DNA from: an uncultured Vicingus sp.
GTDB lineage: Bacteria; Bacteroidota; Bacteroidia; Flavobacteriales_E; Vicingaceae
Direction: 5' to 3'
Assembly: GCA_964422135.1 (NCBI GenBank)
Contig: CAYRAD010000003.1
Span: forward strand, 1-15,872
Length of the DNA stretch: 15,872 nt
A model generated the notes under the pieces. It ran no database searches, was not told where the DNA came from, and saw only the letters and a program-made list of their open reading frames with translations. This document shows, piece by piece, positions 1-15,872 of this stretch. A program made the translations under genes and the position numbers. The first letter of the stretch is position 1; every line of letters starts with the position of its first letter.

Positions 1-908
1 GCCCTCCAAAACCAGATTTGATCGTTTACAATACCAACCAATGTAGAGAAGTACAAGATTGGTTTACCTATTTTGCTAGAGAATTAGATTGTCCTATTTA
101 TGGAATTAAACCTCCTCGTCATATTGATGAAGTAACTCAAGGAGATATTGAAGATGTTGCTGCACAATTTAAAGGAATGATTCCGATTTGTGAAGAAACA
201 AGTGGAAACAAATTCGATATAGAAAACTTTAGAGAAACCATTAGGTTAAGTAAAGAAGCTACCGATTTATGGAAAGAAGTGTTGTGGACTGCCACAAACT
301 CACCATCTCCTATTAGCTTTTTCGATGCTACTATTCATATGGGACCAATTGTAGTTCTTAGAGGAACCCAACAAGCAAAAGATTATTACGCTACCTTGCT
401 TGAAGAATTAAAAGGAAACGTTGAAAAAGGAGTAGGATTTATTGAAAAAGAAGGTTGCAGAATTTATTGGGATGGAATGCCTATTTGGGGTAAGCTAAGA
501 CCAATGTCTGAATTGTTCCTTCAAAATAATGCTGCTGTTGTAGCTTCAACTTATTGTAATAGCTGGGTGTTTGATGCTTTCGATCCAAAAGATCCATTTG
601 AATCTTCTGCCAAAGCATACACTGAAATTTTTATCAATAGAAGTGAAGAAGCAAAAGAAAAATACTTAACCAAACTGGTTAAAGACTTTAGAATAGATGG
701 TATTATTTTCCATGATGCAAAAACATGTTTTAATAATTCCAATTCTAATTTCGGAATGCCTCAAAGATTAACTAAAGCATTAGGAATTCCTACGCTTACT
801 ATTGAAGGTGATTTATGTGATTTACGCTTTTATTCAGAAGGACAAAGTGTTACAAAAATGGAAACCTTTATCGAACAAATTGTAGATGCTAAAATGGTAA
901 CCTCATAG
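1..908 (+). CDS. 2-hydroxyacyl-CoA dehydratase / benzoyl-CoA reductase B/C-family subunit (HgdA/B, BcrB/C-like), 5'-truncated by the window edge
   Basis: The frame stays open to the left edge: nt 3-17 read PPKPD with no stop, so the TTG at 18 is only the ORF-track start. The translation has family-typical segments (NQCREVQDWF, IYWDGMPIWG, DGIIFHDAKTCFNNS) with conserved Cys. A BcrAD-type ATPase is encoded two genes downstream. Recognised by eye, not by search. Confidence 0.8.
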   Translation, partial: PPKPDLIVYNTNQCREVQDWFTYFARELDCPIYGIKPPRHIDEVTQGDIEDVAAQFKGMIPICEETSGNKFDIENFRETIRLSKEATDLWKEVLWTATNSPSPISFFDATIHMGPIVVLRGTQQAKDYYATLLEELKGNVEKGVGFIEKEGCRIYWDGMPIWGKLRPMSELFLQNNAAVVASTYCNSWVFDAFDPKDPFESSAKAYTEIFINRSEEAKEKYLTKLVKDFRIDGIIFHDAKTCFNNSNSNFGMPQRLTKALGIPTLTIEGDLCDLRFYSEGQSVTKMETFIEQIVDAKMVTS

Positions 909-1378
909 TGAAGGAAAGTAATAACATAGCAAATTTTAATTTTTCCGGAAAAGGAAAACTTAGCTCAGAAGAAGTTACTGATTTATTAATGGGGACTTGT
1001 CACTATGTTGATTATGTGGAGTTTACTCAAAACAGTAAACAACAATTAGTAGCATTAATTTTTCCTGATAAAATGCTTCTTAACAATCCTGATTATAAAA
1101 AATCACCAGAAGAAGGTTGTTTTTGTCCACGTAGTTTAGATGAAGTTGGAAGATGTTTAACAGGGTGTTTAGGAAAGGTTAACAATGAAATTGATAATCA
1201 AAAGACTACGATTTCTCTAGCTATAATTATTGGAGAGAAATATGCTCTGGAGAATGGAAAATTAACGGATGAGGCAAAAGAAAAATTAGCAACTATTATT
1301 GAACAATATAAAACTCAATCAACTGCTGCTGATGTTTACATCATTGATTTAGAAACAGAAAATGTAGTTAATAATTAG
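908..1378 (+). CDS. hypothetical Cys-rich protein; possibly an accessory subunit; faint resemblance to the C-terminal domain of AMP-forming long-chain acyl-CoA ligases
   Basis: The GTG start overlaps the upstream TAG stop by 1 nt (TAGTG), which suggests translational coupling. It is 156 aa and has a CxC-x10-C-x3-C cluster (GCFCPRSLDEVGRCLTGC). Segments QQLVALIFPD and ENGKLTDEAKEKLATIIEQYK recall acyl-CoA ligase C-termini. No confident family call. Confidence 0.5.
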   Translation: MKESNNIANFNFSGKGKLSSEEVTDLLMGTCHYVDYVEFTQNSKQQLVALIFPDKMLLNNPDYKKSPEEGCFCPRSLDEVGRCLTGCLGKVNNEIDNQKTTISLAIIIGEKYALENGKLTDEAKEKLATIIEQYKTQSTAADVYIIDLETENVVNN

Positions 1379-1417
1379 GCGATTGAAAAGTATTAAGCTT
1401 ATTAAAAGCAGGATAAG

Positions 1418-3271
1418 ATGAATAAGAATAAGATAAAAAAAGTCGGAGTTGTAGGAATTGGACCCGTAGGAATGATAATAGCCACTCTGTTAAAGGATGC
1501 TGGTTGTGAAGTTGCCATTTCTGATATAGATAAAAATAAATTAGATCTTATTGAAAAAGAAGGGGCTAAGCTGGAAGGAGGATTTAATAAAGAGGTGAAG
1601 TTTGATCATGTTTATAACACTGTTGAAGAGCTAGAAACACTTGACTTAGATTTGATTATCCTGGCTCTTAAAGCTAATTATTTAGGAGGAGTTGTTGAGA
1701 AAGTAGCCTCTTTTAAAAACAGTAATTTCCCTGTAGTTTGTGCTATGAATGGTATTGATACTGAAAATATTGCTTCCGACATTATTGGAGAATCAAGAAC
1801 CCTACGAATGGTTATCAATTTTGCTGGTAATTTATTTGCTCCGAATATAACCAAAGTAACATTTGTTACACCTCCAACTTACCTTGCATCTATTGATGAT
1901 GCAATTACTGAAACAGCTGAACATTTAGCCGAATGGTTTAAAAAAGCTGATTTGGAAGTTAAGGTGATTAATTCATTTGACTTGTTAGGAAAAATTTGGG
2001 AGAAAACTATTCTTAATGCAGCATTAAGTCCATTGTGTGGTGTAGGAAAACTAACAATGGCAGAGGCAATGAATGACCCTGATACAGTTGAATTAATAGA
2101 GCAAATCATTAATGAAGGGGTTGAAGTTGCTGAAAAAGAAAAAATCAGGTTTCCTGATACCTTTGTTAGAAGTTGCATGAAATACCTTAAAAAAGGTGGT
2201 GATCATTTTCCTTCTCTTGCCGGAGATTTAATTAACAACCGACCAACAGAAATTGATTATTTTAATGGTAAAATAGTTGAGTATGGTAAAAAACATTACG
2301 TCAGAACGTCCTTAAATCTTGCGTTTACAAACATGGTAAAAGCCATGACCAACAAAAATATTATTTCAAGAGTTCCTGGCGTTGCTGGTGATGTAACCAA
2401 AAAGATTTTAAATAAAGGAATGATTGATAATACGATTCAAGCATCTTCATTTAAAAATGTAAACTGTTACTTAGGAATAGATTTAGGCTCTGCTTACTAT
2501 AAGTTTACAGTTATTGATGATAATGGGAATGCTGTTTTCCATTATTTATTACCAACATTAACAGGAGACAAGCAATCGAAGAAAAATGTGATGAACGCTA
2601 TTTCCTCTAGTTTTAATATTAAATATAGTTGTGCTACAGGTTATGGAAGAAAACATTTTGTTGAAGCTGATATAATAAAAACTGAAATTAGTTGTGCAAC
2701 TACTGGGGTATCTTTTTTACACCCTGGAGAAAAAAATATTCTCGACATAGGTGGTGAAGACATTAAAGTAATAAAGTGCAGTGAAGAAAATGTTGTTGCT
2801 AACTTTTATATGAATGATAAATGTGCTGCTGGTACTGGTTCGTTCTTATCAGAAATAGCAGAACAAACCAATATTAATATTGCTAACATGAGTAGTTTGG
2901 CTTCTCTCTCTACATTTGATAAAGAGTTAAACAGCTTCTGTACTGTTTTTGCTAAAACAGAAATAATGAATTGGATTTTCGATGGTATGTCACCACAAGA
3001 TATTTCTAGAGGTATTTATATTTCTATTGCCAATAAAGTTGCCAAAATGAGAATAGAACCTAATCTTCCTACTTTCATGATAGGAGGAGTAATTGGCCAT
3101 CATCCTTATTTAAAAACAATTTTAACCGAAAAATTTAATAAGGACATCGAAATTGTGGAACATCCTCAATTTGTGGTTTCACACGGAGCTGCTTTAATCG
3201 CTAAGCAACATTACGAAAAAAACCCCGATGTTGATTCTAAAGCTCAACCACTTGAGTCTTTAAATTCTTAA
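1418..3271 (+). CDS. fusion protein: N-terminal ketopantoate reductase (ApbA/PanE)-like NAD(P)H 2-oxoacid reductase domain plus C-terminal BcrAD/BadFG-type ATPase (2-hydroxyacyl-CoA dehydratase activator, HgdC/HadI-like)
   Basis: N-terminal part (about nt 1418-2360): Rossmann motif KVGVVGIGPVGMIIA, then GKIWEKTILNAALSPL and RPTEIDYFNGKIV, all typical of ApbA/PanE. C-terminal part (about nt 2465-3271): YLGIDLGSAYYKF, ATGYGR, LDIGGEDIKVI, NDKCAAGTGSFL and SFCTVFAKTE. These align by eye almost motif-for-motif with Acidaminococcus HgdC, including both cluster-ligand Cys. Confidence 0.85.
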   Translation: MNKNKIKKVGVVGIGPVGMIIATLLKDAGCEVAISDIDKNKLDLIEKEGAKLEGGFNKEVKFDHVYNTVEELETLDLDLIILALKANYLGGVVEKVASFKNSNFPVVCAMNGIDTENIASDIIGESRTLRMVINFAGNLFAPNITKVTFVTPPTYLASIDDAITETAEHLAEWFKKADLEVKVINSFDLLGKIWEKTILNAALSPLCGVGKLTMAEAMNDPDTVELIEQIINEGVEVAEKEKIRFPDTFVRSCMKYLKKGGDHFPSLAGDLINNRPTEIDYFNGKIVEYGKKHYVRTSLNLAFTNMVKAMTNKNIISRVPGVAGDVTKKILNKGMIDNTIQASSFKNVNCYLGIDLGSAYYKFTVIDDNGNAVFHYLLPTLTGDKQSKKNVMNAISSSFNIKYSCATGYGRKHFVEADIIKTEISCATTGVSFLHPGEKNILDIGGEDIKVIKCSEENVVANFYMNDKCAAGTGSFLSEIAEQTNINIANMSSLASLSTFDKELNSFCTVFAKTEIMNWIFDGMSPQDISRGIYISIANKVAKMRIEPNLPTFMIGGVIGHHPYLKTILTEKFNKDIEIVEHPQFVVSHGAALIAKQHYEKNPDVDSKAQPLESLNS

Positions 3272-3460: not shown

Positions 3461-5479
3461 ATGGCTTATCAGTATAAAAATTTAAACTTCAGCAAACTAT
3501 CAGTTATTGGCGCTGGTCAAATTGGTCCAGACATCTGTTTACACTTTGCAAAAGTGTTTTGGAAAAACAATGTTGAATTTGTAATTATCGATATTTCTTC
3601 TGAGGCTTTGGCAAAAGCGAAAGCAAAAATCGAAAAGAAAATTAGTAAAGGAGTTGAAACAGGAGCTTTTAAACCTGAAATGGCTGAAACAATGAAAAAT
3701 TCCATTGCTTATTCGTCAGATTATGAATTAGTAAGAGGATCAGGTATTGTTTTGGAAGCTGCTACTGAAGATGGTAGAATTAAAGACATTATATTTAAAC
3801 AAGTGGAAGCATTAACAGATGATTCTTGTTTGTTCTTGTCTAATTCTTCTCACATGAAACCAGAGGTTATCTTCAGAAATATAGCCAATAAAAAAAGATG
3901 TTTGGTCACTCATTATTTCTTTCCTGCAGATAGAAATCCTATTGTTGAGGTAGTTCCAGGTGAGGCGACTGACCGTCATATTACAGCAGATTTACTAGGT
4001 TTTTACGAAGCAATCGGAAAAGTCCCTATTGAAGTACAAAGCTCTTACGGTTATGCCATTGACCCCATATTTGAAGGATTGTGTGAATTAGCGATTTTAT
4101 GCTTAGAGAAAGGGTATGGTTCTATTAAGGAAATAGACAAAATGGCTCAAAAAACATTACATCAGGGAGTTGGACCGTTTACAGCATTAAACCTAACCGG
4201 TGGTAATCCGATTACCAATCATGGATTGGAAGAAATGCGTGAAACACATATTCCTTGGTTCAGGTCTCCCAAAGCCTTGCAGGAAGCAACAGCTAACGGA
4301 ACCATGTGGGATACTGCTAAAAGAGGAGAAGAAGTAACGGTTGACCCTGCGAAAGCAGAAGTATTGAGGAAACAATTCTTAGGTGGATATTTCGCCTTGG
4401 TTTGTTACATCATCGATTTGGGGATTACCAATGTAAATGATTTGGATATGGCTGCAGAAATTGCATTGGTAATAGCCGCTCCATTTACTTTGATGAACAA
4501 AATTGGAATTGACGAATCACATGCGTTGGTCGCAGCATGGTGTGAAGAACATACCGAATTCCCTTTCCCAAAATCATTGGATAAGGCAAAAGCAGCTGGT
4601 GGCTGGACAATTTCAAGAATTGTGGCAAAAAAAAATGATAACATCGCAGTACTGACCATCAGAAGACCAAAAGTGTTGAATGCCTTGAATCTTGCAGTTT
4701 TAAAAGAATTAAAAATTGAAATTGAAAAAGCCGAAAATGACGCAAGTGTTGATGGAATTGTAATTACAGGTTTTGGAACAAAAGCTTTCGTCTCTGGTGC
4801 TGATATCAATATGTTGGCTGCTTTAAAAACTCCCGAAGAAGGATATAACAATTCTCATACTTTCCAACAATTGATTAATACCATTGAAGATTGTAAAAAG
4901 CCAACGGTTTGTGCATTAAATGGTTTTGCTTTTGGTGGCGGAAACGAATTGGCAATTACTTGTACAGCAAGAGTTGCCAAAAAAGGATTGCCTGTTGTAG
5001 CTTGTCAACCTGAAGTGAATTTAGGGTTTATTCCAGGCTCAGGAGGAACACAACGTTTACCACGATTAGTCGGGGTTGATGTTGCTGCAGAAATCCTTCG
5101 TACTGCACGACCAGTATCTGGAAAAGAAGCCTTAGAAATAGGATTAATAGATAAAGAAATAGAAGGAGATTTAGTGGAAGGAGCAGTAGGTTTTGCAAAA
5201 AAACTAGTAAAAGGAGAAGTTCAGCCTCGTGATTTTATGAAGGGAGGTATCAAAGAAGATTTAGCTCCTAAGGAAATCAACATTGGTCATTTGAGTAAAA
5301 AAATTGATGACATTATGAATAAGGCAATTTATGATGGAATTAAATTACCATTAAACGAAGCCTTAGAATTAGAATCAAAACTTTTTGGAGAATGCATCTT
5401 AACTGAAGACATGAAAATAGGTTTGGATAATTTCATGACCAACGGACCAAGAGCTAAAGCAGAATTTAAGCACTCTTAA
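3461..5479 (+). CDS. bifunctional 3-hydroxyacyl-CoA dehydrogenase (N-terminal) / enoyl-CoA hydratase (C-terminal)
   Basis: N-terminal NAD motif VIGAGQIGPDI, then SNSSHM and THYFFPADRNPIVEVVPG (HAD signature region). The C-terminal crotonase fold starts near nt 4610: AVLTIRRPKVLNALN, FVSGADI, ALNGFAFGGGNELA and QPEVNLGFIPGSGGTQRLPRLVG, with both catalytic Glu positions present. Confidence 0.9.
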   Translation: MAYQYKNLNFSKLSVIGAGQIGPDICLHFAKVFWKNNVEFVIIDISSEALAKAKAKIEKKISKGVETGAFKPEMAETMKNSIAYSSDYELVRGSGIVLEAATEDGRIKDIIFKQVEALTDDSCLFLSNSSHMKPEVIFRNIANKKRCLVTHYFFPADRNPIVEVVPGEATDRHITADLLGFYEAIGKVPIEVQSSYGYAIDPIFEGLCELAILCLEKGYGSIKEIDKMAQKTLHQGVGPFTALNLTGGNPITNHGLEEMRETHIPWFRSPKALQEATANGTMWDTAKRGEEVTVDPAKAEVLRKQFLGGYFALVCYIIDLGITNVNDLDMAAEIALVIAAPFTLMNKIGIDESHALVAAWCEEHTEFPFPKSLDKAKAAGGWTISRIVAKKNDNIAVLTIRRPKVLNALNLAVLKELKIEIEKAENDASVDGIVITGFGTKAFVSGADINMLAALKTPEEGYNNSHTFQQLINTIEDCKKPTVCALNGFAFGGGNELAITCTARVAKKGLPVVACQPEVNLGFIPGSGGTQRLPRLVGVDVAAEILRTARPVSGKEALEIGLIDKEIEGDLVEGAVGFAKKLVKGEVQPRDFMKGGIKEDLAPKEINIGHLSKKIDDIMNKAIYDGIKLPLNEALELESKLFGECILTEDMKIGLDNFMTNGPRAKAEFKHS

Positions 5480-5497
5480 GTTTCGAAACACTAAGTA

Positions 5498-5577
5498 GAA
5501 CGCGGATAACACAGATGATTATGATAAACACAGAGTTAAATCTTATAAAATCATAACAATCAGCGTCATCTACGTTC
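5498..5577 (+). repeat. intergenic imperfect-palindrome element, copy 1 (80 nt, no nested insert)
   Basis: Sequence: GAACGCGGATAACACAGATGATTATGAT-(24 nt)-ATCATAACAATCAGCGTCATCTACGTTC. The arms are reverse-complementary at about 21 of 28 positions. It starts 18 nt after the stop at 5479 and ends 7 nt before the ATG at 5585. Confidence 0.85.
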
Positions 5578-5584
5578 AAATTAA

Positions 5585-7720
5585 ATGAATATGAAATACA
5601 AAATTGGCATAGATGTAGGAGGAACCTTTACCGACTTTTTTTTGGTAGCTGATAATGGTGATTCTTTGATGCACAAAACGTTATCTACTCCCGAAGATTC
5701 GTCTGAAGGGTTTATAACCGGCTTAAAGGAAATGGCAGAAAAGTTGAATTTGCCAGAAGCTGAGTTCATTGATAACATTGATACTATAGTTCATGGAACT
5801 ACTGTTGCAACAAATGCCTTGTTGACTTTAGGTGGTGCAAAAACCGCATTAATCACTACCAAAGGTTTCCGTGATGCTTTAGAAATGCGAAGAGGAATTC
5901 GTGAAGAACGATATGACAATCACTTTAAAAATGTTACCCCTTTAGTTCCAAGATATTTAAGATATACGATTGATGAAAGAATTGACGCTGAAGGAAATAT
6001 CTTACACAAAGTTGATTACTCAGAGTTAGATGTTATTATTTCAAAACTAAAAGAGGAAAAGGTTGAGGCAGCTGCAGTTTGTTTTATGAATTCTTATTTG
6101 AATAGTGAGAATGAAAACGCAGCAACCGAGTATTTAAGAAAAGCATTACCAGATACATTTATTTCTGCTTCTTATGAAGTATTGCCTTCCGTAAGATTTT
6201 ATGAGAGGGTAAGTACAACTGTTGTAAATGCGTATATCGGAGTAGTGGTAGATTCCTATTTAAAATCATTATTAGGGAAGCTTAAAAAATTAAACTTCAA
6301 CGGTAAGCTAATGATTATGCAATCTAACGGAGGTGTTGTAACTCCTGAGATAGCTTGTAAGATTGCCGCTGTTGCAGTTCTTTCTGGTCCTGCTGCTGCA
6401 CCAATCGCTGGTGCTTATTATGCCAATTTATTAGGATATGATAACTGCATTACCATGGATATGGGAGGTACCAGTTTTGATGCATCATTAGTGGTGAACA
6501 AACAATGTGTTACCAGTACAGATGCTGATATTGATAGATATAGAGTGGCATTGCCAACATTAGATATTATTACCATTGGTGCAGGAGGAGGAAGTATTGG
6601 TTGGGTTGATGAAGGCGGCTTATTGCAGATGGGACCAAAAAGTGCCGGTTCATTGCCAGGCCCAATTTCTTATGATAGAGGTGGCGAGAACCCTGCTTGT
6701 ACAGATGCAGATTTAATCTTAGGATATTTAGATCCTAATTTCTTTGCAGGAGGAAAATACAAATTAAATAAAGACAAAACCATTGAGGTAACCGGGAAAG
6801 TTTTAGGAGAAGGCCTTGGCCTTAGTGCTGAAAAAGCTGCTGCCGGAATGTATAGGGTAATCAACATGAACATGGCACAAGGTGTTCGTCAGGTTTCTGT
6901 AGAAAGAGGTTATGATCCTAGAGAGTTTTTAATGATTTGTGCAGGTGGAGCAGGTTCGATTCACGCTGGAGAAATTTGTCGAGAGTTAGAAATACCAATG
7001 TTTGTAGTGCCTAGTGTTGCACCAATTTTTTGTGCTGCAGGTATGTTGTTGGGCGATTTAAAACATGACTATGTTCGATCATATTTAACAAAACTTTCTG
7101 GTTTAGATAAAGTTGAATTTTTAAGATTGTATGATGAAATGAAGGCTGAAGCAATTAAAACTTTGATTGCAGAAGGAATTACCGAAGATAAAATTGAATA
7201 CATCCCTTCTTTAGATTTAAGATATATCGGTCAATTCCATGAAGTTCCATTAGAGGTTTCTATGGATGATGTTTATGGATTTAATTTGGAAGCAATCAAA
7301 GAAGCTTTTCATAAGGAGCACAGCCGTCAGTTCGGCTACGATTTAAAAGAAGAAGGAACAGAATTGGAAGTAATCAATATTCGATTTAGAGCAGTTGGCA
7401 TTACAGAAAAACCTCATTCATTATCTGGAAATATAGTAAAAGGAGCAAGCACATTAGAGGAAGCTTTAAAAGATAGAAGAATGGCTTATGTTCCTGAAAA
7501 AGATGAAATGCAAGAAGTACCAGTTTATGATGGAGACATCCTGAACAGTAATTTCAAAATTAATGGACCTGCCATTATCGAACAGGTAAACACAACTGTT
7601 TTTTTAGGTGAAAGCTACAATTGCGAAACAGGTATTGGAGGAGCATTTATTGTTTACAACAAAATATTAATGCCCAATGGCTTTAAGAAGAAAAAGGGCA
7701 GTGAGGAAATGGTGAATTAA
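5585..7720 (+). CDS. hydantoinase A / oxoprolinase / acetone-carboxylase-beta family ATPase subunit (HyuA-type)
   Basis: The N-terminus MKYKIGIDVGGTFTDFFLV is diagnostic of Hydantoinase_A family proteins, and MDMGGTSFD is the second ATPase phosphate motif. Length is 711 aa. The start could be the ATG at 5585 or at 5591. Confidence 0.9.
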   Translation: MNMKYKIGIDVGGTFTDFFLVADNGDSLMHKTLSTPEDSSEGFITGLKEMAEKLNLPEAEFIDNIDTIVHGTTVATNALLTLGGAKTALITTKGFRDALEMRRGIREERYDNHFKNVTPLVPRYLRYTIDERIDAEGNILHKVDYSELDVIISKLKEEKVEAAAVCFMNSYLNSENENAATEYLRKALPDTFISASYEVLPSVRFYERVSTTVVNAYIGVVVDSYLKSLLGKLKKLNFNGKLMIMQSNGGVVTPEIACKIAAVAVLSGPAAAPIAGAYYANLLGYDNCITMDMGGTSFDASLVVNKQCVTSTDADIDRYRVALPTLDIITIGAGGGSIGWVDEGGLLQMGPKSAGSLPGPISYDRGGENPACTDADLILGYLDPNFFAGGKYKLNKDKTIEVTGKVLGEGLGLSAEKAAAGMYRVINMNMAQGVRQVSVERGYDPREFLMICAGGAGSIHAGEICRELEIPMFVVPSVAPIFCAAGMLLGDLKHDYVRSYLTKLSGLDKVEFLRLYDEMKAEAIKTLIAEGITEDKIEYIPSLDLRYIGQFHEVPLEVSMDDVYGFNLEAIKEAFHKEHSRQFGYDLKEEGTELEVINIRFRAVGITEKPHSLSGNIVKGASTLEEALKDRRMAYVPEKDEMQEVPVYDGDILNSNFKINGPAIIEQVNTTVFLGESYNCETGIGGAFIVYNKILMPNGFKKKKGSEEMVN

Positions 7721-7724
7721 AAAT

Positions 7725-7857: not shown

Positions 7858-8964
7858 ATGGGAAAAGAAATTAAAAATACATTTATTGACGGTTCGATGC
7901 TGATTATTGAAGCATTGGTGAGGTCTGGAGCAGATATTTTTATCGGCTACCCAATAACTCCCTCTAATAGATTTTACTCTTACGGACAGAAAAGATTTTC
8001 ATCTTTTTATCCAGCACCCGATGAAATATCGGTATTGCAATGGATGTCAGGAGCTTCGGCTGCAGGAAAAATACCCGTTACAGCAACTGCATTTCCAGGG
8101 CTGGCTTTAATGGTAGAATCGTTGAACATGGCTTATGTAATGGAATTGCCAATGGTGTTGGTAATTACTCAACGTTTAGGACCAAGCACAGGATCGGCAA
8201 CTATTGGAGCACAAGGAGATTTAGGAATAGTTAACGGAATTATTTCAGGTTTTCCTGTTCCTACTTTTTGTCCAGCTAGCTTTGAGGATTGCTGGTCACT
8301 TTCTCAAAAAGCAATGGAAACAGCTGTTCAATTAAGGACTCCTGTTATTTTATTGACTTCTAAAGAAATGGTGATGACAAGCAAGAGTTTTGACATCTCT
8401 AAATTAGAAGAGATTAAACCTGTAAACAGAGAGAAACCTAAAATTACTGGAGAATATAAATCATATCAAGCTGGAGCAGATTTGATAGCTCCATTTTTAG
8501 ATGTGAATAACAATGAGCATCAGGTTAGAATAAATGCTTCTATGCATAATGAAGAAGGTAGAATTGTGAAAAACGTAGAATCACTAAACATTACTAAAAG
8601 ATTAGCTGAAAAAATTAATACAAAAGCAACGGGGCTTGCTTGTTTTGATTATAAAAAAGAAGAAGGAGCATCTAAATTGATTATTTCTTATGGAATTTCG
8701 GCTTTAGCTGCAATTGATGCAGTTGAAGAAATACAAGCCAAAAATCAAAAAGTTTCTTTATTAATTGTTAAAACGCTAATTCCATTGTCAAATGAAATTT
8801 ACGATATCATTGATTCATACGATGATGTTTTATTTGTAGAAGAAAATTTAAATGGACAATTGAAAGAAATAATTTTCGGGAAACGAAATAACAAAAAAGT
8901 AAAAAGTATAAATAAATCTGGAAGCATGATTGCTCCTTCAGAAATTGTAAACGAATTCGCTTAG
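7858..8964 (+). CDS. 2-oxoacid:ferredoxin oxidoreductase alpha subunit (KorA/PorA-like)
   Basis: GYPITPSN, DEISVLQWMSGASAAGKIPVTATAFPGLALMVESL and QRLGPSTGSATIGAQGDL match the pyruvate/2-oxoglutarate:ferredoxin oxidoreductase alpha core by eye. The gene lies 4 nt upstream of the beta gene. Confidence 0.85.
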   Translation: MGKEIKNTFIDGSMLIIEALVRSGADIFIGYPITPSNRFYSYGQKRFSSFYPAPDEISVLQWMSGASAAGKIPVTATAFPGLALMVESLNMAYVMELPMVLVITQRLGPSTGSATIGAQGDLGIVNGIISGFPVPTFCPASFEDCWSLSQKAMETAVQLRTPVILLTSKEMVMTSKSFDISKLEEIKPVNREKPKITGEYKSYQAGADLIAPFLDVNNNEHQVRINASMHNEEGRIVKNVESLNITKRLAEKINTKATGLACFDYKKEEGASKLIISYGISALAAIDAVEEIQAKNQKVSLLIVKTLIPLSNEIYDIIDSYDDVLFVEENLNGQLKEIIFGKRNNKKVKSINKSGSMIAPSEIVNEFA

Positions 8965-10262: not shown

Positions 10263-10362
10263 GAACGCAGACCTACCTGAGGTAGGAAGGTAAAACGGAT
10301 GATTATGATAACAGTAGATACAAATCTTACAAAATCATAACAGATCAGCGTCATCAGCGTTC
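10263..10362 (+). repeat. intergenic imperfect-palindrome element, copy 3 (100 nt, with nested 19-nt hairpin)
   Basis: Sequence: GAACGCAGA-[CCTACCTGAGGTAGGAAGG]-TAAAACGGATGATTATGAT...ATCATAACAGATCAGCGTCATCAGCGTTC. The apex pairs GTAGAT with ATCTTAC. It lies between the stop at 10213 and the ATG at 10376. Confidence 0.9.
10272..10290 (+). repeat. 19-nt GC-rich hairpin module nested in the 5' arm of copy 3
   Basis: CCTACCTGAGGTAGGAAGG has the same length and position as the module in copy 2, with 16 of 19 positions identical. Its best stem is CCTACC-TGA-GGTAGG, a shifted register. Confidence 0.8.
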
Positions 10363-10375
10363 CAACAAAATAAAA

Positions 10376-12046
10376 ATGAAAATAGACAAAATATTATTGA
10401 GCATTTTTCAACGAGCGTTTAAATCGATAACGGATGAAATGAGTATTTCATTGACTAAGACTACACGTTCTCCAATTCTGTGTGAAGCAAAAGATTTTGT
10501 TACAGGGTTGTATGATGCTGAAGGAAACATGCTGGAACAAACGGAGAATTTACCTATTCTAAGTTTTTCGCTTGGACCAGTTTGTAAAGTTATTTTAGAC
10601 CAGTATGGCGATGATATTTTTGAAGGAGATATTATTATACATAATGATGTGTTCTCTATGGGAAACCAAAATAACGATGTAGCCATTTTCAAACCCATAT
10701 TTTGTGAAGGAACATTAATCGGTTGGTCGGCAGCAAAAGGTCACCAAGCAGATATTGGAGGTGCTGTTCAAGGAGGATATAATCCAAACGCAACAGAAGT
10801 TTGGCAAGAAGCATTGAGAATACCTGCTGTTAAGCTTTATGAAAAAGGAAAATTTAGAGAAGATGTTTGGAACCTGATCTTTGCCAATATTCGATTAACG
10901 ATGGTTCAGGAAGATATTAAAGCTCAAATTGGTGCTTGTAGTTTAGGGGAAAGAAGATTAAAAGCATTGGTTTCTAAATATGGAGTTGAGAGTTACAATG
11001 CGCATAAACAAGAGCTTTTTAACAGTACAGAAACCATGATGCAATCAGAAATTGCATTAGTGCCAAATGGAAAGTACGAAGGAAGTAGCATGGTTTATTA
11101 CGATGGGAAACATCCGGGTTCAAAGTTTGAAATTAAAGCCATTATCACTGTAAAGGATGAAGAAATAATTTTTGATTTCTCAGAAACTTCACCACAAACA
11201 AATGGCTTTGTAAATGGTACTTACACTTCGTCTTGTTCTGCAATTACCTTAACATTTTTACAAATGGTTAATCCTAACATTCCTCATAATCAGGGAATGA
11301 TTCGGCCATTAACTTATATCGTTCCTGAAGGAACTATCTTAAATGCTTCCTATCCAAAAGCAACAACTTTCGGAAACCATTTATGTCCTCAAGTAGCAGA
11401 TTCAATATTTAAAGCATTAGGTCCAGCTATGCCGGGAAGGGTTACAGCTGGTTGGAATCATTTATTGTGTTCATTGTTTACTGGAGATCATCCAAGAACA
11501 AATGAGAAATATGTTGACATCTGTTTTATGGGATTAAAAGGAGGTTCAGGAGCATTAGAAGGAGATGATGGTTATGATCATATTGGGATGATTGATGCTT
11601 CTGGAGGATTGTTGGATCAGGATTATGAAATGTACGAACAACAAACACCTCATTTAATTCTAAAACACGAATACCTAACTAACTCTGGCGGAGTTGGAAA
11701 ATGGAGAGGTGGTTTAGGGGTTGAAACCAATATAAAAATGGGTGGAGATAATGCTACAATGGTTGTTTTTGGTGATGGTGATGTGGAACAGAATTATGGT
11801 CTTTTCGGAGGAAAAGGAAGTGTTTTAAACAGCATCTCATTAACCTATCCTGACGGAAAAGAGCATGTGCCAATGAGTAAAGATATTGTTGAAGGAATTC
11901 CGGATGGAACCATTTACAAACAAATTGCTGGAGGTGGTGGTGGATACGGAAACCCTAAAGAAAGAGATAGAGATTCTGTAAAATTGGATTTATTAAATGA
12001 AGTGATAACTGAAGAACAAGCGGTTAATGAATATGGATTGAAATAA
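10376..12046 (+). CDS. hydantoinase B / oxoprolinase family subunit (HyuB-type)
   Basis: N-terminus LLSIFQRAFKSITDEMSISLTKTTRSPILCEAKDFVTGLYDAEGNMLEQ and the later GGSGALEGDDG and GGVGKWRGGLG segments are typical of Hydantoinase_B proteins. Confidence 0.9.
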   Translation: MKIDKILLSIFQRAFKSITDEMSISLTKTTRSPILCEAKDFVTGLYDAEGNMLEQTENLPILSFSLGPVCKVILDQYGDDIFEGDIIIHNDVFSMGNQNNDVAIFKPIFCEGTLIGWSAAKGHQADIGGAVQGGYNPNATEVWQEALRIPAVKLYEKGKFREDVWNLIFANIRLTMVQEDIKAQIGACSLGERRLKALVSKYGVESYNAHKQELFNSTETMMQSEIALVPNGKYEGSSMVYYDGKHPGSKFEIKAIITVKDEEIIFDFSETSPQTNGFVNGTYTSSCSAITLTFLQMVNPNIPHNQGMIRPLTYIVPEGTILNASYPKATTFGNHLCPQVADSIFKALGPAMPGRVTAGWNHLLCSLFTGDHPRTNEKYVDICFMGLKGGSGALEGDDGYDHIGMIDASGGLLDQDYEMYEQQTPHLILKHEYLTNSGGVGKWRGGLGVETNIKMGGDNATMVVFGDGDVEQNYGLFGGKGSVLNSISLTYPDGKEHVPMSKDIVEGIPDGTIYKQIAGGGGGYGNPKERDRDSVKLDLLNEVITEEQAVNEYGLK

Positions 12047-12185: not shown

Positions 12186-12207
12186 CTTTTTGAGAAATAT
12201 AAAAATT

Positions 12208-12621
12208 ATGAGCACACACGAAACAATATTACCGGAAGGTTGGCCAACACCCAAAGGATATGCTAATGGAATATTAGCCGCTAAAGGAAGAACACTTTTT
12301 CTAGCCGGACAAGTTGGTTGGTCAGCTGAGGAGAAATTTGCAAGCGATAAATTGGTTCCTCAATTTGAACAAGCTTTAAAAAACATTGTTGCAATTGTAG
12401 AGAAAGCTGGAGGCAAACCAACAGACATCTGCAAAATGACATGTTTCTGTAAAGATAGAGACCAATATTTAGCAACAAGGGGTGAGCTTGGGACAATATG
12501 GAAAAATATCATGGGAAGACATTATCCATGCATGAGCATGATTTTCGTAGTTGATTTATTGGATCATCCTGCTTTAATAGAGATAGAAGCTATGGCTGTG
12601 ATTCCTACGAATTACGAATAA
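12208..12621 (+). CDS. RidA/YjgF/TdcF (endoribonuclease L-PSP) family protein
   Basis: PKGYANGILAAKGRTLFLAGQVGW and a C-terminal LIEIEAMAV are family-typical. I prefer the ATG at 12208 (MSTHE...) over the ORF-track TTG at 12190, which lies only 5 nt past the end of the repeat element. Confidence 0.8.
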   Translation: MSTHETILPEGWPTPKGYANGILAAKGRTLFLAGQVGWSAEEKFASDKLVPQFEQALKNIVAIVEKAGGKPTDICKMTCFCKDRDQYLATRGELGTIWKNIMGRHYPCMSMIFVVDLLDHPALIEIEAMAVIPTNYE

Positions 12622-12634
12622 ACGAATTACGAAT
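12607..12634 (+). repeat. tandem ACGAATTACGAAT x2 spanning the RidA stop and the GxxExxY start
   Basis: Units are at 12607-12619 and 12622-12634. The first encodes the RidA C-terminus and the T of its stop codon. The second ends in the first two bases (AT) of the ATG start at 12633-12635. Confidence 0.8.
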
Positions 12635-13052
12635 GACAGGATATACAGTAAAAAATAAAGATTTATTATTTCCAAAACTTTCATATAAGATTGTAGGAAT
12701 CTTATTTGATGTTTATAATACATTGGGTTATGGGTATTTGGAAAAATATTATCAAAAGGCTATTGCTGCTCAGCTTAAGAAAGAAAAAATAAAATTTACT
12801 GAACAAGAAAAGGTTGAGATTGTTATTGCAAATGAGGTTATAGCAAAAGGATATACTGATTTTATTATTGAGGATAAAATTATTTTGGAAATTAAAAAAG
12901 GCAATTCTTTTAGAAAAAACAATATTGATCAATTACACAGTTATTTAAAAATGAAAAAAATGGAATTAGGAATTCTTGCAAATTTCACATCAAAAGGCTT
13001 GTTGTATAAGCGGATAGTTAATATTAGTAATTCTAAAATTCGTAATACGTAG
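12633..13052 (+). CDS. GxxExxY-motif protein, PD-(D/E)XK nuclease-fold superfamily
   Basis: The eponymous motif is present as GYLEKYY within FDVYNTLGYGYLEKYYQKA. A D...ExK motif follows in TDFIIEDKIILEIKKG. Size is 139 aa. The gene is flanked by ACGAATTACGAAT-type repeats. Confidence 0.8.
   Translation: MTGYTVKNKDLLFPKLSYKIVGILFDVYNTLGYGYLEKYYQKAIAAQLKKEKIKFTEQEKVEIVIANEVIAKGYTDFIIEDKIILEIKKGNSFRKNNIDQLHSYLKMKKMELGILANFTSKGLLYKRIVNISNSKIRNT
13027..13046 (-). repeat. inverted partner of the ACGAATTACGAAT repeat at the 3' end of the GxxExxY gene
   Basis: GTAATTC (13027-13033) and ATTCGTAAT (13038-13046) are reverse complements of GAATTAC and ATTACGAAT in the upstream tandem units. Confidence 0.55.
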
Positions 13053-13056: not shown

Positions 13057-14184
13057 ATGAATTTCGAACTAAACGACATACAAAAATCCGTACAACAAAC
13101 TTTTATAGATTTTGTTGATAAGAGGGTGATGCCTCAGGCAGCAGCAATTGATGAAAATGCTGAATTCCCTATGGAACTTTTTAAGGAAGTTGGAGAATTA
13201 GGGTTTTTTGGCATGCGTTATCCTGAAGATGCTGGTGGTACCAATATGGATATTCTTTCATACTGTTTAGCAGTGATAGAACTTTCAAGGGGCTCGATGT
13301 CGCTTGCTGCAGCTTGCACAATGCAATCACTAATGGCAACTTATTTCTTATATCGATTTGGTGATAAGGAAGTAAAAGGTCATTTTGATGCTGCCATGAA
13401 AGGGGAGGAAATAGGTGCTATCTGCATGACTGAACCCAATGCCGGAAGTGATTTGTTTGCTATCAAAACAAAAGCATTGGTGAAAGAAGATTACTTTTTG
13501 TTGAGTGGTCAAAAAACATGGGTTACATCTGCACCAGTTGCCAACTTTTTTACTGTCTTGGCAAAAACAGATAACCACGATAAATTATCCATCTTTTTTG
13601 TTCCATCTAATTTGGAAGGGGTAACTGTCGGAAAGAAAATTGACAAATTAGGGGCTTGTGGTTCCGTAACCAGTGAGGTTGCTTTTGACAATGTAAAACT
13701 TCCAAAAAACTACTTATTAGGTGAGATTGGTGGGGGAACAAAATGTTTAATGGAGATATTGGCAGAGATTAGAATTATGACTGCTGCACTATCTATTGGT
13801 GTTGCAACAGCTGCTTTTGAAGATGCATTACAATATGCCAAAGAAAGAGAACAATTTGGAAAGCCTATTGGAAAATTTCAAGCAGTAAAAATGAAGTTTG
13901 CAGAAATGGAAGTTCAACTACAAACAGCTAAACATTATGTGTTTTACGCAGCTTATTTAAGCGACAACAATTTACCTCGACATAAAGAATCAATGATTGC
14001 CAAATTGTATGCATCAGAATGTGCCAACTCTATTTGCGACCAAGCTTCAAGAGTTTTAGCATCTTATGGTTATGCAACAGAATACTCGCTGCAACGCTAT
14101 TTACGTGATGCTCGATTTACATTGATTGGTGGAGGTACATCAGAAATTTTGAAAATAAATATAGGTAGAGAGTTGGGATTGTAG
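13057..14184 (+). CDS. FAD-dependent acyl-CoA dehydrogenase
   Basis: Typical ACAD layout: GFFGMRYPE, CMTEPNAGSDL, KTWVTSA, QYAKEREQFGKPIG. The C-terminal motif is IGGGTSEI, which resembles isovaleryl-CoA dehydrogenase IGAGTSE rather than the YEGTS of MCAD/SCAD. Confidence 0.9.
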   Translation: MNFELNDIQKSVQQTFIDFVDKRVMPQAAAIDENAEFPMELFKEVGELGFFGMRYPEDAGGTNMDILSYCLAVIELSRGSMSLAAACTMQSLMATYFLYRFGDKEVKGHFDAAMKGEEIGAICMTEPNAGSDLFAIKTKALVKEDYFLLSGQKTWVTSAPVANFFTVLAKTDNHDKLSIFFVPSNLEGVTVGKKIDKLGACGSVTSEVAFDNVKLPKNYLLGEIGGGTKCLMEILAEIRIMTAALSIGVATAAFEDALQYAKEREQFGKPIGKFQAVKMKFAEMEVQLQTAKHYVFYAAYLSDNNLPRHKESMIAKLYASECANSICDQASRVLASYGYATEYSLQRYLRDARFTLIGGGTSEILKINIGRELGL

Positions 14185-14286: not shown

Positions 14287-15666
14287 ATGAGTTATATAAA
14301 AGAATACAGTATTGCATTACCTGAGTTTAGAATCTCAAATAAAACCCTACACCCCAGGTTAGGAAGAAAGGGTCAACATGCTGTTTGTTATACAGATGAA
14401 GATATTGTTACACTAGCATATCAAGCCGCATCCAATTTGAAACATGAAACTTTAAACTTGAAAATTGATGGAGTCATTTTCGCAACAACAACTCCAGTTT
14501 TTAAAAGCAGGTATCATGCTTCTTATGTTGCAGATATATTGGGTTTAAAACAAGGAATCTTAGCAATGGATTTAGGAACAAGTGTTAGAGCTGGTTCTGA
14601 TGCACTATTGATGGCTGATAAATTGATAAAGAGTGGTGAATACAAAAATATTTTGGTTATTGCTGCTGAGGTTTACTATCCTGAAATAGGAAAAGAAACT
14701 CGAGCAGCTTTTGGTCACGCTGGGGTTGCAATGCTTATTGCTGCTGATGAAGGAATTGCTGAAATAACGAATACTAAATCATACTCATCAGCTTTAGCAG
14801 AAGAGTTTAATTACAAAGGAGAAGCCGTTCAGTACGATGCTCGTTTTGCTAGAACAGAAGGATTTAAAAAGAACCTCGATTTAGCATTGAAATTAAGTAA
14901 CATCGATGCTGAGAAAGTTAACCAAGTGATACTTCATTCTCCTTATGCTAAAATAGCTTTCGGACAATTAAAGAAAGCTGGGTTTGATTTGGAAAAACAG
15001 TTAATGAAAGATACTGTTGCCAATGAAGTTGGAAATACAGGAGCTTGTCATGGATTACTTTTATTAATAAATGCTATTGAAAATGGTCAAGGAAACGTTG
15101 TTTTATTTGATTATTTAAATGGAACGAATGTAATCGAAATTAATAGTTGTCACCCTGAACTTGTCGAAGGACAATCATTTAATCATCAATTTACAGACAT
15201 TGAAACCTATCAAGATTATCTCACCTTAAGAAAACAAGGAAAGTTTACAGGTCGAGGATATGAATCTATTGATATGTTCTCTTCTGAAATGATTAGTGAA
15301 AGAGAAAAAGAGGGCTTGATGTATTTAAAAGGTTACGAATGTGCTAAATGTGGAACAGTATATTACATGAGAGCAGCAAGATGTAATGCATGTCATCATA
15401 CTGAATTCAAACAAAAACAACTAGGTAAAAAAGGGACAGTCTATACTGTAACCAGCGAACATTATTTCCCCAATTCATTTGCACCAACAAATATGGTAAT
15501 CATTGATTTAGATGGAGGAGGAAGAGTAACTGTTCAACAAACAGATGACATGTCCCCTTCTGAAGCAAATACAATTAACATTGGAGATAAAGTGGAATTG
15601 GTATTAAGAAAAATGATGGAGAATGATAAGAAGCCGAACTACTTTTGGAAGTGCATAAAAGAATAG
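14287..15666 (+). CDS. fusion: HMG-CoA synthase-like thiolase-fold domain plus C-terminal DUF35-type zinc-ribbon/OB-fold domain
   Basis: The first 320 aa or so align by eye with HMG-CoA synthases (FATTTPVF..ILGL, GHAGVAMLIA, LHSPYAKIA, VGNTGA). The C-terminal about 120 aa carry CAKC...CNAC (zinc ribbon) followed by an OB-like segment GTVYTVT...IIDLDGGGRV, as in DUF35 proteins. Confidence 0.8.
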   Translation: MSYIKEYSIALPEFRISNKTLHPRLGRKGQHAVCYTDEDIVTLAYQAASNLKHETLNLKIDGVIFATTTPVFKSRYHASYVADILGLKQGILAMDLGTSVRAGSDALLMADKLIKSGEYKNILVIAAEVYYPEIGKETRAAFGHAGVAMLIAADEGIAEITNTKSYSSALAEEFNYKGEAVQYDARFARTEGFKKNLDLALKLSNIDAEKVNQVILHSPYAKIAFGQLKKAGFDLEKQLMKDTVANEVGNTGACHGLLLLINAIENGQGNVVLFDYLNGTNVIEINSCHPELVEGQSFNHQFTDIETYQDYLTLRKQGKFTGRGYESIDMFSSEMISEREKEGLMYLKGYECAKCGTVYYMRAARCNACHHTEFKQKQLGKKGTVYTVTSEHYFPNSFAPTNMVIIDLDGGGRVTVQQTDDMSPSEANTINIGDKVELVLRKMMENDKKPNYFWKCIKE

Positions 15667-15783
15667 AACGTAGATAACGCAGATGGTTATGATTAATTAT
15701 GATAAAATAAAGAAAGCTAAAGAATTGGATGTTAGCAAAATCAAATCATTTTCTATCATAAAAAATCAGTGTCATCAGCGTTC
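15666..15783 (+). repeat. intergenic imperfect-palindrome element, copy 4 (118 nt, expanded centre, no nested insert)
   Basis: Sequence: GAACGTAGATAACGCAGATGGTTATGAT-TAA-TTATGAT...ATCATTTTCTATCATAAAAAATCAGTGTCATCAGCGTTC. The inner TTATGAT/ATCAT motif is duplicated on both arms. The first base is the G of the TAG stop at 15664-15666, and the element ends 26 nt before the ATG at 15810. Confidence 0.85.
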
Positions 15784-15809
15784 CATTAATTGGTAGATAA
15801 ATTATAAAT

Positions 15810-15872
15810 ATGAAACGAAACATAGCAATAATTGGTCTTGGTGTTACCAAGTTTGGAGAACTTTTTAATCAA
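15810..15872 (+). CDS. thiolase (SCP-x / archaeal-type acetyl-CoA C-acyltransferase-like), 3'-truncated by the window edge
   Basis: Not in the ORF track because it runs off the edge. The ATG at 15810 gives MKRNIAIIGLGVTKFGELFNQ, a typical N-terminus of SCP-x-type thiolases. Genes for these usually neighbour DUF35 and HMGCS-like genes. Confidence 0.6.
   Translation, partial: MKRNIAIIGLGVTKFGELFNQ

Follow-up and report, generated by a model that had tools for sequence, protein, structure and literature searches.

The window analysed here is the whole stretch of 15,872 nucleotides at positions 1 to 15,872 of contig CAYRAD010000003.1, from an uncultured Vicingus sp., and has a GC content of about 34%. 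It carries 12 open reading frames on the + strand plus the first 21 codons of a thirteenth gene, numbered g1 to g13 in order and separated by gaps of -1, 39, 189, 105, 137, 4, 162, 143, 11, 4, 102 and 144 nt (range -1 to 189). A preliminary description made from the sequence alone had reported thirteen co-directional genes in a Bacteroidota-like genomic style. All 13 do lie on the + strand, their domain calls were confirmed by Pfam and NCBIfam profile searches (the NCBIfam cutoffs quoted below are family or equivalog thresholds), and homologues of the window proteins are found in metagenome-assembled genomes (MAGs) of Bacteroidota; g2 and g10 are the two genes which that description had left unnamed. 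Known systems explain most of the window, as a variant in a new phylum, and what is left unexplained is one conserved enzyme pair. The window is probably a junction, in a Vicingaceae-like member of the Flavobacteriales, between the 3' end of a benzoyl-CoA reductase (bcr) cluster (g1 to g3) and the 5' half of an operon of the iaa type (from g4 onwards).

Through the iaa locus Aromatoleum degrades indoleacetate anaerobically as far as 2-aminobenzoyl-CoA (PMC9613470), and the operon iaaABCDEFGHIJKLMPQR is known from Aromatoleum aromaticum EbN1 and A. evansii (Ebenau-Jehle 2012; Schuhle 2016, 2021; PMC8360864, PMC9613470). IaaB is a ligase, IaaL a phenylsuccinyl-CoA transferase, IaaGH a B12-dependent mutase and IaaF a decarboxylating benzylmalonyl-CoA dehydrogenase (PMC8360864). 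IaaC (707 aa) and IaaE (564 aa) form a hydantoinase-like hydrolase pair (PMC8453981) that has been predicted to act as a 2-oxoindoleacetyl-CoA gamma-lactamase (PMC5214803). We recognised an iaa-type operon by an acyl-CoA dehydrogenase (ACAD) with the motif GGG, a HyuA/HyuB pair by this ACAD, and a fusion of 3-hydroxyacyl-CoA dehydrogenase and enoyl-CoA hydratase (HAD/ECH) together with a beta-ketothiolase, and all of these are found in the window, the last as g12/g13. Two further marks of such an operon, the B12 mutase with a family III CoA-transferase and an XDH-family molybdenum hydroxylase for hydroxylation at C2, lie outside the window and were seen in relatives. In the work of Ebenau-Jehle from 2012 the iaa locus is also said to hold a molybdenum hydroxylase, an ECH/HAD fusion and a thiolase.

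The ACAD g11 (13057..14184) is of the IaaF type. The IaaF subclass is defined by GGG replacing the YEG active-site motif (PMC8360864), and the C-terminus of g11 reads ...RFTLIGGGTSEILK, with GGG instead of YEG in the motif stretch ...FTLIGGGTSEILK. GGG is present in all 52 readable ACADs that lie next to HyuB in relatives, and an unrelated neighbouring ACAD has YEG. All known ACADs of the GGG branch lie in iaa-type operons, and the published primers for cloning iaaF encode MDFDLTD and IAKEVSS-stop (PMC8360864). In three high-GC loci (L148 and L156, both with a GC of 0.67, and L161; L numbers denote loci of relatives throughout) the ACADs begin with MNFDLTD and end with IIAKEVSS, and g11 is 54-55% identical to these ACADs whose termini match the IaaF primers. 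A member of the 90%-identity cluster of g11 also carries the JGI label 'benzylmalonyl-CoA dehydrogenase'. We predict that g11 is a decarboxylating (2-aminobenzyl)malonyl-CoA dehydrogenase.

The HyuA protein g5 (5585..7720; 711 aa; Pfam Hydant_A_N, Hydantoinase_A and Hydant_A_C) resembles the large subunit IaaC, and the HyuB protein g8 (10376..12046; 556 aa; Pfam Hydantoinase_B, 469 bits) the small subunit IaaE, the two pairs being of like size. The best NCBIfam model for g5 was the caprolactamase alpha subunit, and the best PDB matches were 6YRA_A for g5 and 6YRA_B for g8. The scores of 663 bits (g5) and 392 bits (g8) lie below the CapAB equivalog cutoff of 1000 bits per subunit. The caprolactamase CapAB of P. 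jessenii (PDB 6YRA) thus is the best structural and sequence match, with the same subunit sizes and with ATP-dependent lactam hydrolysis as the predicted reaction; g5/g8 differ from it in falling under its equivalog cutoffs and in an iaa-type gene context that lacks an aminotransferase. The predicted substrate of g5/g8 is the gamma-lactam of 2-oxoindoleacetyl-CoA.

The HAD/ECH fusion is g4 (3461..5479; Pfam 3HCDH_N and ECH_1), and a homologous fusion is found in the high-GC iaa-type locus L150. The thiolase is represented by its start only: g13 (15810..15872, cut by the window end) begins with MKRNIAIIGLGVTKFGELFNQ, of the SCP-x/archaeal type, which agrees with the start of the thiolases in L166 and L007, and the L007 orthologue matches thiolase models. 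Its partner g12 (14287..15666; Pfam ACP_syn_III and OB_ChsH2_C) fuses a PhlA/HMGCS-like domain with the ketoacyl synthase III (KS-III) fold to a BbsA/PhlB-like DUF35 domain, and its nearest PDB structures are PhlA (9SKH_A), BbsA (7PXP_A) and an HMGCS with DUF35 (6ESQ). The earlier label of g12 as HMGCS-like stands for the fold of the family and falls for the identity as an HMG-CoA synthase: against PRK04262 it scores 93 bits where the cutoff is 244, and the nucleophilic Cys is absent, with Val at what we take to be the position aligned with Cys112 of FabH and with His and Asn kept. It is probable that g12 is a non-catalytic scaffold for the thiolase. The three-part make-up of KS-like, DUF35 and SCP-x-type thiolase is shared with the PhlACB acyltransferase, the archaeal thiolase/HMGCS/DUF35 complex and BbsAB; it differs from them in the fusion of the KS-like and DUF35 parts, in the KS-like domain without a nucleophilic Cys, and in a gene context that predicts thiolysis of an aryl-3-oxoacyl-CoA. 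An HMG-CoA/mevalonate or isovaleryl-CoA reading of g12/g13 with the ACAD was considered and rejected, the KS-like domain having no Cys and the ACAD being of the IaaF type.

The gene order of this module in relatives was read in 80 loci from a metagenome scan with HyuB. In window-like loci the gene for the ketopantoate reductase (KPR)-activase fusion described below (g3) is followed by g4, HyuA, HyuB, Rid, ACAD and KS-DUF35, without an oxidoreductase between HyuA and HyuB. Most loci of the scan have no bcr genes nearby and share the set HAD/ECH, HyuA, HyuB, (Rid), ACAD and thiolase; the order HyuA-HyuB-ACAD(GGG) is kept in about 50 loci, high-GC ones included. Genes for a B12-binding protein, a large subunit of the methylmalonyl-CoA-mutase family and a family III CoA-transferase lie 3' of the thiolase in L126, L084 and L164-166, and in the close relatives L084, L087, L090 and L164-166 the B12 mutase and the transferase follow it directly. 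In L084, L087, L126 and L164-166 this constant set then continues with an IorA/IorB-type indolepyruvate:ferredoxin oxidoreductase (IOR; best match IOR_alpha, 361 bits) and with XDH-family subunits, of which the 2Fe-2S and the molybdenum cofactor subunits are present in L126, L159 and L164-166. The high-GC loci L150 and L159 (GC of 0.65 in L159) combine ligase, thiolase, HyuA, HyuB, ACAD, mutase, family III CoA-transferase, HAD/ECH fusion and molybdenum hydroxylase, and the window proteins are 48-49% (HyuA), 67-68% (HyuB) and 54-55% (ACAD) identical to those of high-GC iaa-type loci.

Some relatives carry further genes that bear on how substrates enter the pathway. In L090 (11831-13195) a TrpB-like pyridoxal phosphate enzyme (NF009057, 717 bits, cutoff 366) lies between HyuB and Rid, and unannotated 454-aa reading frames occupy its position in L088 and L032. 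The TrpB-like gene hints at a link of indole salvage to tryptophan with the degradation operon, and at a possible reason for the Rid protein. Together with the IOR-type oxidoreductase it suggests entry from indolepyruvate or tryptophan and not from free indoleacetate alone. In L164-L166 (16892-20275) and in L084 (13543-16275) a Fer4_20/Pyr_redox_2 module that is GltD/NfnB-like forms one protein with the IorA-type oxidoreductase, of 1127 aa, whose composition suggests a pyridine-nucleotide-linked indolepyruvate oxidoreductase. In another version of the operon (L107, 9-4766; also L104, L106, L108, L127, L128, L130 and L142) it is preceded by UbiD-like and UbiX-like (de)carboxylase genes, UPF0261, PAC_bac and a PaaK-type ligase, suggesting a different entry reaction in those organisms.

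The left-hand module is best followed from g3 (1418..3271), in which a KPR-family domain is fused to an ATP-dependent activase of the HadI/HgdC type (Pfam ApbA, ApbA_C and BcrAD_BadFG). Over 1,200 proteins are homologous to this fusion, at 60-68% identity, and those with names come from Bacteroidota MAGs. A scan of one genome per species found relatives of g3 in at least 379 GTDB species genomes, almost all of them MAGs, from Vicingaceae, other Flavobacteriales, Chitinophagaceae, Saprospiraceae, Ignavibacteria and Chlorobiota. We read the synteny of 80 g3 loci with 10-kb flanks. Their constant order is bcrC-bcrB-bcrA-bcrD, a CoA ligase, a third paralogue of the HGD-D family (HGD3, corresponding to g1), in some a g2 homologue, and the KPR-activase, usually followed on the 3' side by a thiolase, a zinc-dependent alcohol dehydrogenase (had), two enoyl-CoA hydratase genes (oah, dch), a HAD/ECH fusion and korAB. 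The BcrAD ATPase genes encode about 471 and 285 aa, and the ligase is an AMP-forming enzyme of 582 aa in some loci and an ADP-forming one of 711 aa in others. In L009 the scores of BcrC (437 bits, cutoff 421), BcrB (660, cutoff 486), Had (455, cutoff 339) and Oah (593, cutoff 464) exceed their equivalog thresholds; for BcrA (418, cutoff 578), BcrD (310, just below the cutoff of 313) and Dch (217, cutoff 292) these models are the best matches, below cutoff. The oxidoreductase of L009 is of the KorAB type, with two subunits of 610 and 340 aa. These profile matches identify the cluster of the relatives as a class I benzoyl-CoA pathway of the Thauera type.

The window itself differs from the Thauera aromatica-type pathway in holding only a lineage-specific extra pair, HGD3 and KPR-activase. 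Its genes do not score as members of BcrCBAD: g1 reaches 122 bits against BcrB (cutoff about 486), and g3 reaches 105 against BcrA (578) and 70 against BcrD (313). The window thus encodes none of BcrCBAD and appears to adjoin benzoyl-CoA reductase genes, the true bcrCBAD lying upstream in the relatives. The preliminary description had thought that a CoA-transferase or ligase and the partner dehydratase subunit might lie upstream; a ligase and further HGD/Bcr subunits do lie there in the relatives, which carry bcrCBAD and a ligase immediately upstream. Its idea that a Kor-like oxidoreductase stands in a ferredoxin-dependent setting of the Bcr type is borne out by the bcr clusters of the relatives and the domains of g6/g7. 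We know of no HGD3 and KPR-activase pair from proteobacterial bcr clusters, and our literature search found no specific description of a Bacteroidota bcr cluster or of the KPR-activase fusion. A bcr-HGD3-KPR-activase cluster of the Bacteroidota type was also seen in L042, a gammaproteobacterial MAG of Candidatus Competibacteraceae, and in L076, labelled Bifidobacterium sp., which could reflect lateral transfer or mis-binning.

Between the two modules we place the boundary in the 189-nt gap of g3 and g4, since the right-hand operon stands alone in the complete genome CP129492.1 (L166), where it is headed by the HAD/ECH gene. The junction of bcr and iaa-type genes is found in at least 15 loci, including L007, L010, L018, L027, L032, L039, L046, L055, L058, L085, L087, L088, L090 and L097. 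Such recurrence fits a metabolic hand-over between the modules, and with both halves conserved in many genomes the cluster is no chance juxtaposition. The preliminary description had stated that it knew of no characterised pathway with this composition. This does not hold, its hydantoinase and beta-oxidation modules corresponding to the iaa operon (PMC8360864, PMC9613470), with its dehydratase and oxidoreductase modules found in the Thauera-type cluster. Recent lateral transfer was considered as the source of the difference in identity between g4-g11 (83-95%) and g3 (60-68%) and was not upheld, because in L166 HyuB, Rid and ACAD are 80-90% identical to the window proteins but g4 and HyuA only 59-62%; this pattern indicates that the proteins of high identity (HyuB, Rid and ACAD) are simply slow-evolving. 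A tblastn search of HyuB against plasmids returned only generic hydantoinases in B-A order at no more than 36% identity, and the match on the plasmid of Azoarcus KH32C is no iaa cluster.

Domains, the motif of g11, the synteny of relatives and their adjacency to bcr genes are what we observed; joined to the known pathway they lead to a proposed route in which all substrates are assigned by homology. Indoleacetyl-CoA would be formed from indolepyruvate by the IOR-type enzyme, or from indoleacetate by a ligase, and oxidised to 2-oxoindoleacetyl-CoA by the molybdenum hydroxylase, both steps drawing on genes of relatives. With ATP, g5/g8 would open the gamma-lactam to give (2-aminophenyl)succinyl-CoA, which the family III CoA-transferase and the B12 mutase, again genes of relatives, would convert to (2-aminobenzyl)malonyl-CoA. 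Oxidative decarboxylation by g11 would yield 2-aminocinnamoyl-CoA and CO2, g4 would hydrate and oxidise 2-aminocinnamoyl-CoA to 3-oxo-3-(2-aminophenyl)propionyl-CoA, and the thiolase g13, held by g12, would release acetyl-CoA and 2-aminobenzoyl-CoA. The latter would pass into the adjacent benzoyl-CoA reductase pathway, which would need reduced ferredoxin from a 2-oxoacid:ferredoxin oxidoreductase.

The likeness to the Aromatoleum operon extends to the lactamase pair, to the order of HyuA, an intervening gene, HyuB and ACAD, and to the GGG ACAD, HAD/ECH fusion and thiolase, to which relatives add the B12 mutase, family III CoA-transferase and XDH-family molybdenum enzyme. It differs in its host, which belongs to the Bacteroidota (34% GC) and not to the Rhodocyclales, in identities of about 32-68%, in the SCP-x-type thiolase with its PhlA/DUF35 fusion scaffold, in the extra Rid, GxxExxY and Kor-type genes, in abutting a bcr cluster, and in the IOR-type oxidoreductase (GltD-like-fused in some) and the occasional TrpB-like gene of relatives. 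Several points weigh against an iaa-type pathway joined to benzoyl-CoA reduction. The mutase, CoA-transferase, molybdenum hydroxylase and IOR lie outside the window and are seen in relatives only, and bcrCBAD, too, is outside the window and known only from relatives. g4 shares just 32% identity with the HAD/ECH proteins from high-GC iaa-type loci, and the bridge to the A. aromaticum Iaa proteins is indirect, consisting of primer-encoded termini, motif and synteny and of no direct alignment. To our knowledge the Aromatoleum operon has no Rid, GxxExxY or Kor-type oxidoreductase gene and no PhlA/DUF35 scaffold. The lactamase role of IaaCE is still a prediction that biochemistry has nowhere confirmed, and the iaa activities that have been measured are those of IaaB, IaaL and IaaF only, in Aromatoleum only. 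The true substrate could also be another oxindole or an arylsuccinate compound.

This last point is the core of the rival that we take most seriously, namely that the same iaa-like enzymes serve an oxindole, a dihydroquinolinone, another N-heterocycle or a substrate of the phenylsuccinate type, still leading to (amino)benzoyl-CoA. Substrates are assigned by homology only, the operon content varies (UbiD/UbiX and PaaK-like genes in L107, a TrpB-like gene in L090, different oxidoreductases), and IaaF and IaaL were assayed on phenyl analogues and not on amino-substituted substrates (PMC8360864). The indolepyruvate-type oxidoreductase and the TrpB-like gene of relatives, by contrast, point to indole or tryptophan, and the confinement of known GGG-branch ACADs to iaa-type operons (PMC8360864) points the same way; we consider a different substrate unlikely. 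It is far less probable that HyuA/HyuB is a ketone carboxylase of the acetone or acetophenone type feeding a Bcr-type reductase, which was one of two readings in the preliminary description. This reading has in its favour a genuine Bcr setting and a Kor-type oxidoreductase, and HyuA does match acetophenone carboxylase subunits, much more weakly than lactamases. The core subunits of these carboxylases are, however, about 680-780 aa long and are accompanied by a small gamma subunit (PMC5214803), whereas HyuB has 556 aa and no gene for a small gamma subunit is present in the window. With best matches to the caprolactamase 6YRA and to N-methylhydantoinase, this places g5/g8 among the hydrolases and not the ketone carboxylases. 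The conserved partners of the pair are moreover a mutase, a CoA-transferase and an IaaF-type ACAD, with no benzoylacetate-CoA ligase. Ketone carboxylation is the least probable of the rivals.

The other earlier reading took the 13 genes as one pathway for a fermentation of the hydroxyglutarate or hydroxyisocaproate type. In one part, that HyuA/HyuB opens a lactam rather than carboxylates, it is upheld by the size class of the pair and its lactamase best matches. It can further draw on g1, which is HadB-like with conserved Cys, and on g3, which joins a domain of the D-2-hydroxyacid dehydrogenase family (PMC4230899) to a dehydratase-type activase. As a single pathway it is largely refuted by synteny, as g1-g3 and g4-g13 are conserved separately, either occurring without the other in most loci, and g1-g3 always lie within the bcrCBAD-had-oah-dch cluster. 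The ACAD is IaaF-type and not a butyryl- or isocaproyl-CoA dehydrogenase, and no beta subunit, Etf or glutaconyl-CoA decarboxylase was found. The argument from RidA has also lapsed: g9 (12190..12621; YjgF/L-PSP family, Pfam 64.5 bits) scores 48.5 bits against TIGR00004, with a cutoff of 106.25, and belongs to Rid at the family level only. By inspection it reads PCM at what we take to be the P-x-R position of RidA, where the catalytic Arg is apparently absent. We hold such a fermentation to be very improbable, if marginally less so than ketone carboxylation, and keep to the junction of a benzoyl-CoA cluster with an iaa-type operon.

If this reading is correct, members of the Bacteroidota and Ignavibacteria in lakes, groundwater and sludge, whose genomes in this analysis were almost all MAGs, would possess what looks like a full benzoyl-CoA pathway, which a subset joins to a degradation operon for auxin or the tryptophan side chain. 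So far as we know, experimental work on class I benzoyl-CoA reductases and on the iaa pathway comes from only a few Proteobacteria. More organisms than now assumed would then break down aromatic amino-acid derivatives and a plant hormone completely in the absence of oxygen, and candidates are offered for iaa steps that are still unproven, the lactamase and the molybdenum hydroxylase.

The part of the window that known systems do not explain is the pair of HGD3 and KPR-activase with the small protein g2. Truncated at its 5' end, g1 (1..908) holds the C-terminal part of an HGD-D protein (Pfam HGD-D, 188 bits) that is HadB-like and alpha-type. It is neither BcrB nor BcrC but a third HGD paralogue that belongs to the bcr cluster upstream. 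Its NCBIfam scores for HadB (145 bits) and BcrB (122 bits) are both far under the cutoffs, and HGD3 scores about alike against HadB, BcrB and MbdO. The orthologue in L007 is complete and 87% identical to g1; it can be aligned with HadB (3O3M_A) over the whole length, and three of its Cys, conserved ligands of the [4Fe-4S] cluster, fall on Cys of HadB. The window part of g1 holds two of them, in NQCREV and KTCFNNS. HGD3 directly precedes g3 in 69 of 76 loci, and in these 69 loci it is the sole HGD gene besides bcrB and bcrC, with no beta partner for an alpha/beta heterodimer. The preliminary description would have seen an ordinary cluster if the dehydratase subunit lacked both its cluster ligands and its partner; the Cys are present and a beta gene is not. 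Next to it g2 (908..1378; 156 aa) has no Pfam or NCBIfam family and is a free-standing homologue of the C-terminal domain of an AMP-forming ligase, sharing 40% identity (E 2e-34) with the ligase of L009 (7045-8790) over residues 423-571 of the latter. The two share the conserved four-Cys motif GCFCPRSLxExGRCLTGCL. In the 27 loci of its family g2 is a separate gene, nearly all of them with an ADP-forming ligase instead, and its retention beside HGD3 where the ligase is ADP-forming suggests a metal- or Fe-S-binding role apart from adenylation.

Both halves of g3 keep characteristic residues. The protein scores 167 bits against TIGR00241 (cutoff 125) and 159 bits against TIGR00745 (cutoff 141), and its nearest PDB structures are HadI (4EHT) and HgdC (1HUX) for the activase domain and 2EW2 and 3WFI for the KPR domain, 3WFI presumably being a member of the D-mandelate dehydrogenase type. 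Across 13 homologues GxGxxG, K196, E278, C469 and C508 are invariant. The KPR domain thus retains its Rossmann motif and the catalytic Lys and Glu, and the activase domain has the two cluster Cys expected of a dedicated activator, C469 and C508, 39 residues apart; this spacing is like that of what we take to be C127 and C166 in HgdC. By its family the KPR domain is a D-2-hydroxyacid dehydrogenase, and among the members are D-mandelate dehydrogenases that act on bulky 2-oxoacids (PMC4230899).

These features recall the (R)-2-hydroxyacyl-CoA dehydratases HadBC/HadI, HgdAB/HgdC and FldBC/FldI: g1 is HadB-like with three Cys, g3 has an activase with two cluster Cys, a CoA ligase is adjacent and the KPR-family domain could supply the (R)-2-hydroxyacid. 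The arrangement differs from them in having a single HGD subunit, an activase fused to a dehydrogenase, and the pair placed inside a bcr cluster. One possibility, which we put forward only tentatively and with more doubt than confidence, is that g1, g2 and g3 form an undescribed ATP-driven radical enzyme with a single HGD subunit that is standard in the benzoyl-CoA clusters of Bacteroidota and Ignavibacteria. The most economical guess for HGD3 and g3 would be a sequence from 2-oxoacid to (R)-2-hydroxyacid, CoA ester and enoyl-CoA that feeds benzoyl-CoA. As an aryllactyl-CoA dehydratase, again a guess from the domains, the KPR domain would reduce arylpyruvate to (R)-aryllactate, the ligase would form the CoA ester, HGD3 would dehydrate this ester to arylacrylyl-CoA, and the adjacent HAD/ECH with thiolase would shorten the chain to benzoyl-CoA. 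Alternatively, HGD3 would act as an alternative catalytic subunit and retarget the reductase to substituted benzoyl-CoAs. The aryllactyl-CoA route, if true, would be a new anaerobic path from phenylalanine or tryptophan to benzoyl-CoA, and conserved HGD3 with KPR-activase would be a new architecture within the superfamily of radical dehydratases and reductases.

Between HyuA and HyuB the window holds an oxidoreductase that looks like a local insertion, as does g10. The alpha subunit of this 2-oxoacid:ferredoxin oxidoreductase, of the Kor type, is g6 (7858..8964; Pfam POR_N and PFOR_II), and the beta subunit g7 (8969..10213; Pfam TPP_enzyme_C) binds thiamine pyrophosphate, with an N-terminal CPGCGH motif and a weak gamma-like C-terminal domain (POR, 25 bits). 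Their nearest PDB structures are 1YD7 and 8YS5, and the best NCBIfam models are of the Kor or OAFO type, all below cutoff. With KorAB from related bcr clusters they share only 26-33% identity, and the domain split is different; a derivation as a split form of the 842-aa IOR-type fusion of relatives was rejected at 18-26% identity (26% for g7). Relatives have nothing at this site, HyuA being followed directly by HyuB, and a similar pair occurs in iaa-like operons only in L010 and L118, and in the window g6/g7 are bracketed by 84-nt repeats that are 80% identical. In Thauera KorAB regenerates the ferredoxin of the reductase, and g6/g7 may do the same here or may act on arylpyruvate. The HyuA-HyuB junction holds unrelated inserted genes in the window (7721-10375) and in L039, L105, L111, L112, L133, L139 and L145. 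A truncated iaaD is part of the Aromatoleum operon (PMC8360864); judging from the name, its place should be between iaaC and iaaE. The junction looks like an insertion hot spot.

Two small genes follow HyuB. The true start of g9 is probably the ATG at 12208. A Rid gene recurs after HyuB in many Bacteroidota loci, in some of them behind the TrpB-like gene, and we may speculate that g9 deaminates an enamine or imine, such as might arise once 2-aminobenzoyl-CoA has been dearomatised, or acts in this way beside the TrpB-like enzyme. The other, g10 (12633..13052), encodes a GxxExxY protein of the PD-(D/E)XK type (Pfam PDDEXK_3, 98 bits; TIGR04256, 99.6 bits, cutoff 35). It is absent from this position in closer relatives, and GxxExxY genes occur at varying sites in iaa-like operons (L090, L091, L099, L105, L112 and L134), so that they are likely to be mobile, selfish or accessory insertions.

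In the intergenic spaces a scan of the + strand found no terminator-like site between the genes, sigma-70 promoter sites were no commoner than in shuffled sequences (the scan does not cover Bacteroidota promoters), and the window had no Rfam match, including none to a cobalamin riboswitch. The gaps do hold palindromic repeats of 85-130 nt (families D1-D3), in which an outer stem GAACGCAGATAACGCAGAT pairs with the 19-mer ATCAGCGTCATCAGCGTTC. This core 19-mer has four copies in the window where 0.01 are expected, and the predicted hairpins have z-scores of -2.4 to -6.3. Copy 1 (5497..5580, + strand, as are all four) lies in the g4/g5 gap (z-score -5.8), copy 2 (7724..7826) in the g5/g6 gap at the left flank of the oxidoreductase insertion (-3.9), and copy 3 (10266..10365) in the g7/g8 gap at its right flank (-2.4). 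Copy 4 (15666..15802), in the g12/g13 gap, is rearranged with its first arm inverted, comprising inverted repeat I1 and direct repeat D2, and has the 19-mer at 15765-15783. Where its start is readable, the repeat begins at, or directly behind, the stop codon of the gene before it, and it ends 8-35 nt ahead of the next start codon. The element could be REP- or MITE-like, a site of mRNA processing or stability, or an operator, and it is also found in iaa-like operons of other MAGs, at L014:14215, L039:14222 and L091:11753/17130/19236/20540.

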